DNA of 64,000 nucleotides from a virus (Duplodnaviria > Heunggongvirae > Uroviricota > Caudoviricetes), in IMG/VR virus record IMGVR_UViG_3300027710_001079, positions 64,833 to 128,832 of that record; one strand, given 5' to 3'. Shown here piece after piece: positions 50,753 to 52,360 of the stretch. Made by a program: the position numbers and the translations under genes. Each line of letters opens with the position of its first letter. The first letter of the stretch is position 1. Under the pieces are notes generated by a model. That model ran no database searches. It was given only the letters and a program-made list of their open reading frames with translations, and was not told where the DNA came from.

Positions 50753-51448
50753 TTAAGAATTCTTTTTTATTAAGTTAATTAGTTCGGGTGCTGACAAACT
50801 GTCAAAGTCCAGGCCTATGTTCATTCGAATACCAGTGCTGAACTTATGTACACTATGCCATTCTAAATGATTAAACACATACCAATATCCTGGCTCTATT
50901 TGAGCACTGACCACATGTTCGATTTTATCTAAATCTGGTATTCTAGTAGTGTGAATAATTTCAAATGGTTCTTTTTCTCTGTACCATCTAGTCTCTTCTC
51001 CGTTACCTTCGAGTAGCATAAACAAAGAACTTTTTCGTTTATGGCCTTTATGTGGCGGTAGGATTTCTCCTCCGTGACTAATTTGAAATATAGGAACTGG
51101 CTCGCCGGGAGTGGGCTCTTTTAAAAACTCCGGAGTTAGTGAAAGGAATTCGGAAGTATCTTGTTCTGTAAGAAAATATTGAGTAAAGTTAATAACGTTA
51201 CTTTCTGTAAAGTATTCCTTGATTTGCCGTCCTCGGCGAATCAATTCTTTTGAATCTCGACTGCCTATTAAATTAAATGTAGCTCTCGGATTGTTTCTAG
51301 GGTCGTCATAGTTGTTTCTAAAAACAAGGTTATCAGTACTTGTCTTAACACGACCTAGCAGACTTTGACAAAAATCATCTGCAAATTTTAAATTTGTTTT
51401 GTATATGTATTTGTCGGCATCAACATCCGATATTATAGTTTTAATCAT
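50753..51448 (-). CDS. Cupin/2OG-oxygenase-like protein
   Basis: ILPPHKGH...WYVFNHLEWHSV...R double-stranded beta-helix pattern. Confidence 0.6.
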   Translation of the reverse strand: MIKTIISDVDADKYIYKTNLKFADDFCQSLLGRVKTSTDNLVFRNNYDDPRNNPRATFNLIGSRDSKELIRRGRQIKEYFTESNVINFTQYFLTEQDTSEFLSLTPEFLKEPTPGEPVPIFQISHGGEILPPHKGHKRKSSLFMLLEGNGEETRWYREKEPFEIIHTTRIPDLDKIEHVVSAQIEPGYWYVFNHLEWHSVHKFSTGIRMNIGLDFDSLSAPELINLIKKNS

Positions 51449-51462
51449 ACTTTACTAAAATT

Positions 51463-51563
51463 TGGTACGGTCGGTAGGCTTCGAACCTACAAGGGCAGTG
51501 TCTAGGACTGTGCCCGGTCCCCGCAGTGAACTTTGGGAGCTTTTCCAATTTGCTCACGACCGC
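51463..51563 (-). ncRNA. Atypical 101-nt tRNA-like RNA (class II/Leu-like scaffold, TCA at the anticodon position)
   Basis: GCGGTCG/CGACCGT acceptor + ACCA; D arm AGC-AAATTGGAAAA-GCT; T arm GTAGG-TTCGAAG-CCTAC; poorly paired anticodon arm; extra-long variable arm. Confidence 0.75.
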
Positions 51564-51565
51564 AA

Positions 51566-52360
51566 TTAATTATAACTTATTTTCTTCTCCGACGCAAGTC
51601 CTAGAAACATCAAAGTTTGGATAACATATCGACCTGGATCAAACTGCCACCATTCTTTTCCAATCTGCCAACTACCCGGAGCAGAGTGATGGTTATAGTG
51701 CCAGCCTTCACCGAATGTTAAGTACGACCACCACCAAACATTATGTGATTGATCTCGATAGTCAGTTGCAACCCGTGTTCCGAACATTGGGCTATGATCA
51801 ATCCAATTACTCAATCTAGAAGCCATTGTGTTAAAAAATACAGGGATAATGTAGAGAAATACTGCAATCATTGGATCAATTGCCACTAACACTGCTACTA
51901 CTAGTAAGACTATTAGCATATAGTACTCGTGCATAAATCTATGAACAGGGTCGTTTATAATATCTTTTACAGACCATTTGTTAAATTTTCCACCGTAGTC
52001 ACCAACGAACGCACCTATTGGGCCTAGTACTACTGGGCTGTGCGGATCACCGGGTTTGTCTGCAAATTTATGATGTGCTCTATGTACAAATACCCATCCC
52101 ACTGAGCTACCAGTACAGCCTAAATTTCCAAAGAAGCTAAACAAATATTCTAAGGGTTTCCAAAGTTGATACGATTTATGTGTCAACAATCTATGAAAAG
52201 TAACTGTAATACCGAGACAGGTAATTAAAAAATATCCAACTAAAGAAAGTAGCCAGTAGTTCCAACTAATAGGAGTTACTATTGCCCACACAAAAATACC
52301 AGCAGCGGCTAACTGCATTGCAATAAAAAACCACTCTCGTGGATAAAAATACTGTTTCAT
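51566..52360 (-). CDS. Membrane fatty-acid desaturase 1 (delta-9/DesC-like)
   Basis: His boxes HRLLTH, HRAHH and WHYNHH; start corrected to MKQYF. Confidence 0.9.
   Translation of the reverse strand: MKQYFYPREWFFIAMQLAAAGIFVWAIVTPISWNYWLLSLVGYFLITCLGITVTFHRLLTHKSYQLWKPLEYLFSFFGNLGCTGSSVGWVFVHRAHHKFADKPGDPHSPVVLGPIGAFVGDYGGKFNKWSVKDIINDPVHRFMHEYYMLIVLLVVAVLVAIDPMIAVFLYIIPVFFNTMASRLSNWIDHSPMFGTRVATDYRDQSHNVWWWSYLTFGEGWHYNHHSAPGSWQIGKEWWQFDPGRYVIQTLMFLGLASEKKISYN

Follow-up and report, generated by a model that had tools for sequence, protein, structure and literature searches.

A tRNA-Leu-like RNA gene of a freshwater phage belongs to a conserved family of probable non-decoding tRNA mimics

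A 64,000-nucleotide stretch of phage DNA, hereafter the window (C1:64833-128832 of G000, a 192.8-kb IMG/VR virus record that is about 55% complete), carries an RNA gene that we consider likely to be a functional gene for a non-decoding tRNA-Leu mimic, a member of a conserved phage family. That the element is a real RNA under selection is almost certain, and that it does not decode is very probable. Judged by sequence, the RNA has retained the features required by LeuRS, whereas those required by the ribosome are gone. The record comes from a large myovirus-like freshwater phage, in which tail-fibre genes are present, and the RNA gene is single-copy in this phage. Apart from it, 38 tRNA genes were found, 37 of them in one array outside the window, and three normal tRNA-Leu genes are among the 38. 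The parts of the element and its immediate surroundings are listed in Table 1.

Table 1. Positions, within the window, of the putative tRNA-Leu-mimic gene, its parts, its promoter and the next ORF
Feature	RNA position	Window position	Strand	Basis or remark
Whole RNA gene (putative tRNA-Leu mimic), 101 nt		51463..51563	minus	sequence and family model R1
Acceptor stem, 5' strand, GCGGUCG	1-7	51557..51563	minus	pairs with RNA 91-97
Acceptor stem, 3' strand, CGACCGU	91-97	51467..51473	minus	pairing and family alignment
Leu-type D arm: 3-bp stem AGC/GCU, loop AAAUUGGAAAA with G18G19	10-26	51538..51554	minus	family invariance, T4 tRNA-Leu loop layout
Arm 1, at the anticodon-arm position: CCC/GGG base around AAAGUUCACUGC, includes the non-conserved TCA	27-45	51519..51537	minus	
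Arm 2, long variable arm: GGGCA/UGCCC, internal loop, then GU/AC around CCUAG	49-71	51493..51515	minus	
T arm: GUAGG-UUCGAAG-CCUAC	74-90	51474..51490	minus	100% of cells paired; pair 50-64 covaries (UA, CG, GC)
Discriminator A73 and encoded CCA		51463..51466	minus	A73 in 55/55 and CCA encoded in 51/55 sequences
-10 box TATAAT		51569..51574	minus	ends 5 nt before RNA base 1, same position family-wide; overlaps last codons of upstream ORF
Weak -35 box TTGCGT		51592..51597	minus	17-nt spacer, within upstream ORF; promoter 9/12 matches
231-aa ORF directly downstream of the RNA		50753-51448	minus	virus-only protein family

The tRNA-like architecture described in an earlier note on this DNA is present in full, namely a 7-bp acceptor stem, an A discriminator, an encoded CCA, a Leu-type D arm with GG and a canonical T arm. 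The acceptor stem has G1.U72 on top, U8 is present, and the acceptor, D and T arms come with the elbow nucleotides of a canonical tRNA (G18G19, U54 U55 C56 and A58). Both the 7/5 fold, as opposed to the 8/5 fold of tRNA-Sec, and the second arm, GGGCA...UGCCC, were confirmed. The 7-nt loop CCUAGAC that had been read in this second arm does exist, on a CAGU/ACUG stem, but in the window sequence only; the tip shared by the relatives is a short stem of G-C plus U-A/A-U that carries a C-N-U-A-G loop. For the single window sequence, the minimum-energy fold is not the cloverleaf (-37.4 kcal/mol vs -30.6 kcal/mol for the cloverleaf). A default ARAGORN run calls a tRNA-Thr as the sole tRNA in the window and does not call the element, and Rfam gives no match to a 451-nt slice containing it, RF00005 included, at the gathering threshold or at E up to 10; under the same settings no Rfam family was found for the loci of three relatives. 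In intron mode, ARAGORN does return a 'tRNA-Pyl(cta)', but at the price of a poor stem and a 23-nt intron, and we regard this call as a forced fit.

Homologues were collected from IMG/VR and the JGI metagenomes by pattern searches. An exact 20-mer from the T arm and acceptor matched four IMG/VR contigs, two degenerate patterns returned about 50 IMG/VR viral contigs and 76 metagenome contigs, and a third pattern with other fixed positions gave about 28 further members; a loose pattern, which yielded mostly chance matches, was dropped. Over 80 distinct sequences of the RNA family are present in these collections. A family covariance model, R1, was built from 14 sequences, and gives the family members 60-134 bits and real tRNAs at most 46 bits. 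The window RNA matches this model over its full length at 96 bits (E about 1e-18), well above the real tRNAs, the best non-member being T4 tRNA-Leu with 46.2 bits. Other outsiders score lower, with 38 bits for a bacterial tRNA-Leu(UAG) and 31 and 29 bits for the phage's own tRNA-Leu(CAA) and tRNA-Leu(UAG), respectively. Among 185,579 species genomes that were scanned, a single true match came up, on a 6-kb contig binned to a Crocinitomicaceae MAG that is probably phage DNA, the other matches being ordinary tRNAs or chance, and no match was obtained by BLASTN of three family types against 50,697 GenBank phage records. Hence, across these sequence collections, the family looks restricted to uncultivated phages, large and mostly freshwater ones. 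It is apparently undescribed, and may be among the unnamed tRNA-like RNAs of a 2023 survey that predicted thousands of structured RNAs in IMG/VR (PMC10690425).

Covariation among homologues, which had been named beforehand as a check of the fold, is observed in its helices across 56 distinct sequences. In alignments that were fitted to the R1 model, and are to that extent biased toward the structure, 99.0% of the cells are paired and 16 of the 31 pairs show changes on both sides, as was also seen with 26 sequences; when the partners are slid by 1-3 columns as a control, 30-45% are paired. Compensatory changes are found in the acceptor stem (at five of its seven pairs, with 100% of the cells paired), in the T stem and in arm 1 at its apical helix, and the variable arm shows them in both its helices. 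Furthermore, the 3 bp at the base of arm 1 covary in the less biased set (CCC/GGG, CUC/GAG, CUU/AAG and CCA/UGG), the outer helix of arm 2 has double changes at three of its five pairs, and the inner pair of arm 2 occurs as AU (34), GC (9), UA (7) and CG (4). Given the 96-bit model score and the helices that covary over 56 distinct homologues, the element is not a chance look-alike.

U8, A13-15, G18G19, A58 and A73, all of which the search pattern left free, are invariant in 55 distinct sequences. In a second set, where the positions in question were free, conservation or covariation extends to U48, to the 3' side of arm 1, which is rich in G, and to most of the 3' half of the D loop. Invariance elsewhere is partly imposed by the search, since AAAGCTCCC, GGGGA and TTGNAGGTTC were fixed in one set and AGCAAA and the T arm in the other, so that all positions are free only when both sets are combined.

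The genes that surround the element differ between lineages. In the window, the RNA gene starts 2 nt past the stop codon of a desaturase-like ORF and is separated by a 14-nt gap from the downstream ORF, with a methyltransferase, a 2OG oxygenase and tRNA-Thr(UGU) further downstream on the same strand; the island around it comprises desaturase-like, 2OG-oxygenase, methyltransferase and ATP-grasp genes. The 231-aa product of the downstream ORF has no family in Pfam, PHROG or NCBIfam, and an Atlas feature search gives a weak lead to 2OG or Asp/Arg hydroxylases (0.89). In the relatives L004 and L007 this gene is missing and the methyltransferase directly follows the RNA. Desaturase-like and methyltransferase genes are the neighbours in the window's own group, which belongs to the second of three classes that the form of arm 1 defines (see below). 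Class I loci have a radical-SAM gene on one side of the RNA and an Hc1-like/ThyX block on the other; an unrelated 244-aa family is found downstream of the RNA in other class II loci, and class III members sit inside tRNA arrays, one of them 6 nt from a tRNA-Ser. BLASTP showed no relationship between the ~244-aa proteins of those class II loci and the methyltransferase of the window.

Two further observations were made on the gene content of these loci. A conserved 64-aa Hc1-like (PF07432) histone-like gene is located about 43-45 nt past the RNA in class I loci (L008:5173-5367 and equivalents in the others), with ThyX next. Unusually long tRNAs occur in the tRNA array of the phage, outside the window (G000 C1:137807-137896 and C1:147200-147291), and in other contigs (L156:2144-2234 and L161:3715-3807); one of the array tRNAs is a 90-nt 'tRNA-Pro(UGG)' with a long extra arm and G73, and the other, a tRNA-Ile(UAU) of 92 nt that recurs in related contigs, has about 20 nt in its extra arm.

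Promoters were scored against TTGACA-N16-18-TATAAT within the upstream 45 nt, over 12 positions. At least 10 of the 12 consensus positions are matched in 45 of 69 distinct loci, with a -10 box ending 5-6 nt before base 1, compared with 0.2% of random positions in the same loci. The window combines a weak -35 box with a perfect sigma-70-type -10 box at the family's usual distance. Given this placement, the transcript should start at or beside base 1, that is, at or beside the mature 5' end, which leaves no leader for RNase P to remove. In the window the RNA is not followed by a terminator, and for this reason it is probably released from a longer transcript there and may be one segment of an operon transcript. 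From public RNA runs, only short contigs at a low share were obtained; none covers the RNA in an RNA library, and one run, which is probably DNA, contains T-arm ends of relatives.

The same layout could also serve a role in cis, in which the element would be a tRNA-like 'punctuation' or a 5' cap, with the promoter mainly serving the downstream gene and the element, devoid of a function in its own right, either being cut by tRNA-processing RNases or protecting or defining the mRNA end. Indeed, the promoter starts at the first base of the RNA, no terminator lies behind it in the window, and in every locus the RNA is found 6-80 nt upstream of a same-strand gene or tRNA (14 nt in the window and 15 nt in L004). 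However, what lies downstream changes from locus to locus, being the unknown 231-aa protein, the methyltransferase, the unrelated 244-aa family, the Hc1-like protein or the tRNA-Ser, and neighbours that are not conserved argue against a purely cis role for one downstream gene. Moreover, a processing signal needs no invariant A73, A14, A15 and G18G19, no Leu-type D loop and no long variable arm. A cis-acting element, of which a generic processing signal or 5' cap would be the more tenable form, is an unlikely explanation.

The identity of tRNA-Leu for E. coli LeuRS resides in A73, the A15-U48 pair, G18G19, A20a and the D/T-loop pairs, independently of the anticodon and the variable arm, and the enzyme still charges a tRNA-Leu from which anticodon arm and variable arm are both missing, provided that A73 and the elbow are undamaged (PMC9976931). 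As related in the same source, minimalist tRNA-Leu bodies without a working anticodon arm, in which A73 and the D/T-loop tertiary pairs were kept, are leucylated by E. coli LeuRS (Larkin et al. 2002); these are laboratory constructs, whereas the phage RNA keeps and even enlarges its variable arm. The window RNA contains A73, A14, A15, U48, G18G19, A20a and the D/T-loop partners, and this set, which is that of E. coli and may not be that of the host, is invariant in the family wherever the search left it free. The RNA is probably chargeable with leucine, and as to its being leucylated in vivo we regard the chances as even. In 4 of 55 members, and in several of the second, differently biased set, CCA is not encoded but A73 is kept, which suggests that the host CCA-adding enzyme completes the 3' end, as it does for tRNA. 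Together with the members located in tRNA arrays, these A73-only ends are signs of tRNA-type handling.

Since all LeuRS determinants are kept and decoding is lost, one may think of a dedicated leucyl donor for non-ribosomal chemistry, an RNA that would stay off the ribosome and so reserve leucine for island enzymes, for a host Leu/Phe-tRNA protein transferase or for a cyclodipeptide-type enzyme. In the window the gene keeps company with desaturase-like, 2OG-oxygenase, methyltransferase and ATP-grasp genes; an aminoacyl donor for the surrounding island had been among the options of the earlier note, and the retained determinants are compatible with it. The link to the island does not hold, since the neighbours are not conserved: class I is found at radical-SAM and Hc1/ThyX genes and class III in tRNA arrays, so that a role tied to the enzyme island is weakened. 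Nor was an aminoacyl-tRNA-dependent transferase found nearby or in the phage: the flanking proteins contain no Fem, L/F-transferase or other aminoacyl-tRNA-using domain, and Pfam searches of the about-55%-complete phage record detected no Leu/Phe-transferase (PF03588) and no CCA-adding enzyme. We consider such a donor improbable.

The strength of selection on the element was estimated from its closest relative, L002, which is 91% identical to the window over 4 kb. Four flanking genes, compared at their third codon positions, have 209 differences in 955 sites (21.9%) between the two. In the RNA, the 60 core bases, which make up the acceptor, the D arm, the base of arm 1, the junction, the T arm and CCA, show 0 changes (P = 3.7e-7). 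The 41 central bases differ at 8 positions (19.5%), which is indistinguishable from neutral. The sequences compared here point to strong purifying selection on the acceptor stem, A73-CCA, U8, the Leu-type D arm, the top three anticodon-stem pairs, the long variable arm and the T arm, and to a lower anticodon arm that is rebuilt or drifting.

In the best-scoring outsider, T4 tRNA-Leu (NC_000866 72370-72456), as in the phage RNA, the acceptor has 7 bp, A73-CCA and U8 are present, the 3-bp D stem carries an AAAUUGG-NAAA loop, the T arm is canonical, and the long variable arm ends in YUUG just ahead of the T stem. The phage RNA departs from this tRNA in having neither a 5-bp anticodon stem nor a 7-nt loop or conserved triplet, and in a variable arm that is longer and interrupted by an internal loop; its Rfam score stays under the tRNA threshold, and ARAGORN does not pick it up in default mode. 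The D loop is identical in one phage tRNA-Leu(UAA). Taken together, the D-loop layout of T4 tRNA-Leu, the YUUG junction and this identical D loop indicate that the family descends from a phage tRNA-Leu, and by this descent arm 2 is the variable arm and arm 1 occupies the former place of the anticodon arm.

A body derived from tRNA-Leu that carries a degenerate anticodon arm is also what a functionless, decaying tRNA-Leu pseudogene would look like, as had been proposed for the element. The origin in a phage tRNA-Leu stands but the decay does not: the absence of change in 60 core bases against a neutral rate of 21.9%, the wide family with compensatory changes in five helices and the consensus promoter conserved at a fixed distance already contradict it, and we hold a pseudogene to be very improbable.

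Arm 1 occurs in three unrelated forms, with an apical part that differs by class. In class I (29 of 55 sequences) a 3-bp base bears, by way of an internal loop, a helix of 5-6 bp that covaries and is capped by the conserved loop C(C/U)CA(U/C)AG, and the arm has about twice the length of an anticodon stem. In class III (15 sequences) it is a simple hairpin of 7 bp, with a bulged C and 3-4 nt in the loop, and in class II (10 sequences, window included) a 3-bp base closes a poorly paired stretch of 12-17 nt. When the homologues are compared, the canonical combination of a 5-bp anticodon stem, a 7-nt loop with U33 and a conserved anticodon is not found. In the window itself, the anticodon arm proposed earlier, CCAAA-GUUCACU-GCGGG, pairs at two of five positions (C-G, C-G, A.G, A.C, A.G), exactly as had been stated. 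Arm 2 was also considered as the true anticodon arm, with CUA, UUA, GUA or AUA in its loop, and was rejected, as it is ~10 layers long, has C at position 33 and carries loops of 3-6 nt in the relatives.

Without a conserved anticodon loop that an anticodon nuclease could recognise, the idea of a decoy for such nucleases is not supported. An opal (UGA) suppressor tRNA, in which the arm-1 TCA (canonically placed, 7-9 bases into a 7-base stretch, with U before it) would read UGA, is the least probable explanation of all and is ruled out by a TCA confined to the window among the 10 class II members (CCA in L002, and TCC, TCT or TGC in the others), a central region of 41 nt that drifts neutrally, a stem paired at two of five positions, closed hairpins with 3-5-nt loops in the other classes and the use of TGA as a normal stop. 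Indeed, TGA ends 41 of the 145 ORFs of at least 150 aa in the phage, in agreement with the earlier view that UGA is not globally recoded, and reading through TAG or TGA in the phage record gives no recoding signal and no hint of recoded genes.

Several side observations concern the stop codons and the two arms. Among the 145 ATG-ORFs of at least 150 aa in the phage record, TAG is the stop of one, compared with 103 for TAA and 41 for TGA, and the TAG trinucleotide occurs at 0.96 of expectation. Class I members (L008:5019-5129, L015:871-981 and others) carry the same pentanucleotide in the loops of both arms, C-C-CAUAG in arm 1 and CAUAG or CGUAG in arm 2, and from their sequence these could be two copies of one protein-binding site; the window keeps the arm-2 version only, as CCUAG. 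By default, ARAGORN labels class III members as a 99-nt 'tRNA-Pro(tgg)' (L157:689-787, L159:439-537, L161:479-577 and L164:179-277), which is again a forced fit.

Stable tRNA-like RNAs of T4 and T5 (T4 RNA C and D; T5 RNA1-3) have been known since the 1970s. T5 RNA1 and RNA2 (NC_005859, annotated 'tRNA-like stable RNA with unknown functions') and T4 RNA C and D resemble the mimic in being stable phage RNAs with tRNA-like parts. In T5 RNA1 (L256:2502-2645, minus strand), a D arm of the E. coli tRNA-Leu type, whose loop is GAAUUGGUAGA, and a T arm flank a central insert of ~75 nt; this RNA is a Leu-bodied tRNA mimic too, and is not detectably homologous to the family. A T arm is also present in T4 RNA C. 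With R1, the T5 RNAs score 15.5 bits (RNA2), 11.5 bits (RNA1) and 6.1 bits (RNA3), all below the ordinary T5 tRNAs and with no homology detectable, and T4 RNA C gives no match. Furthermore, the T5 and T4 stable RNAs differ in size, with 119-144 nt, and in the annotated records T5 RNA1 and T4 RNA C have no A73-CCA end, unlike the mimic. T5 RNA1, T5 RNA2 and T4 RNA C are the nearest described analogues only, not homologues. As late as 2022, the T4 pair, RNA C and RNA D, was described as being of unknown function (PMC9697503).

Other RNAs that borrow from tRNA differ more clearly. The YrlA-type bacterial Y RNAs (RF02553, bound by Ro60/Rsr) are, like the phage RNA, non-coding and contain a tRNA-mimicking module, but this module is internal and their ends form the Ro-binding stem, whereas the ends of the phage RNA form a normal acceptor stem with CCA; Rfam gave no match that would link the element to YrlA, and Pfam TROVE was not detected in the phage record. 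Bacterial tRNA-Sec has an 8-bp acceptor and a 5-bp T stem, a 6-bp D stem, G73 and a conserved UCA, in contrast to the 7/5 fold, 3-bp D stem, A73 and unconserved TCA of the phage RNA, and no Rfam match to tRNA-Sec was obtained for the element. In tmRNA, the alanine identity G3.U70 is combined with a tag reading frame; the phage RNA has G3-C70, and an ARAGORN tmRNA search of the element was negative.

In the mechanism that we propose, the RNA would be transcribed from a sigma-70-type promoter starting near base 1, or be cut from an operon transcript, and would fold as a class II tRNA. Enzymes of tRNA would then process it, by 3' trimming, by CCA repair and quite possibly by leucylation through the host LeuRS, which would be blind to the anticodon. 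Since the RNA cannot pair with a codon in the ribosome, it would act off the ribosome, and would there occupy or feed a protein by which the tRNA body or its 3' end is recognised. Most likely, therefore, the RNA engages proteins recognising the tRNA body or 3' end, possibly in a leucylated form. Tentatively, it may serve as a decoy or sponge and capture proteins with an affinity for tRNA ends or elbows. A more speculative possibility is that a leucine-chargeable tRNA body, made early from a strong promoter and kept from decoding, acts off the ribosome either as a decoy for host anti-phage enzymes that hit tRNA 3' ends or elbows (for instance CCA-modifying toxins) or as a private leucine carrier.

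The family is widespread and easily recognised, and its constraints are sharply defined. Its genes are missed by tRNA finders or receive spurious tRNA-Pro, tRNA-Pyl or suppressor calls, and so give rise to false annotations. With the LeuRS set and the 3' end frozen and the decoding arm free, its partners are narrowed to readers of the tRNA body or end. If the RNA does prove to be a decoy or a leucine carrier, it would represent a new functional class of viral RNA and would offer a role for the tRNA-like stable RNAs of T4 and T5.
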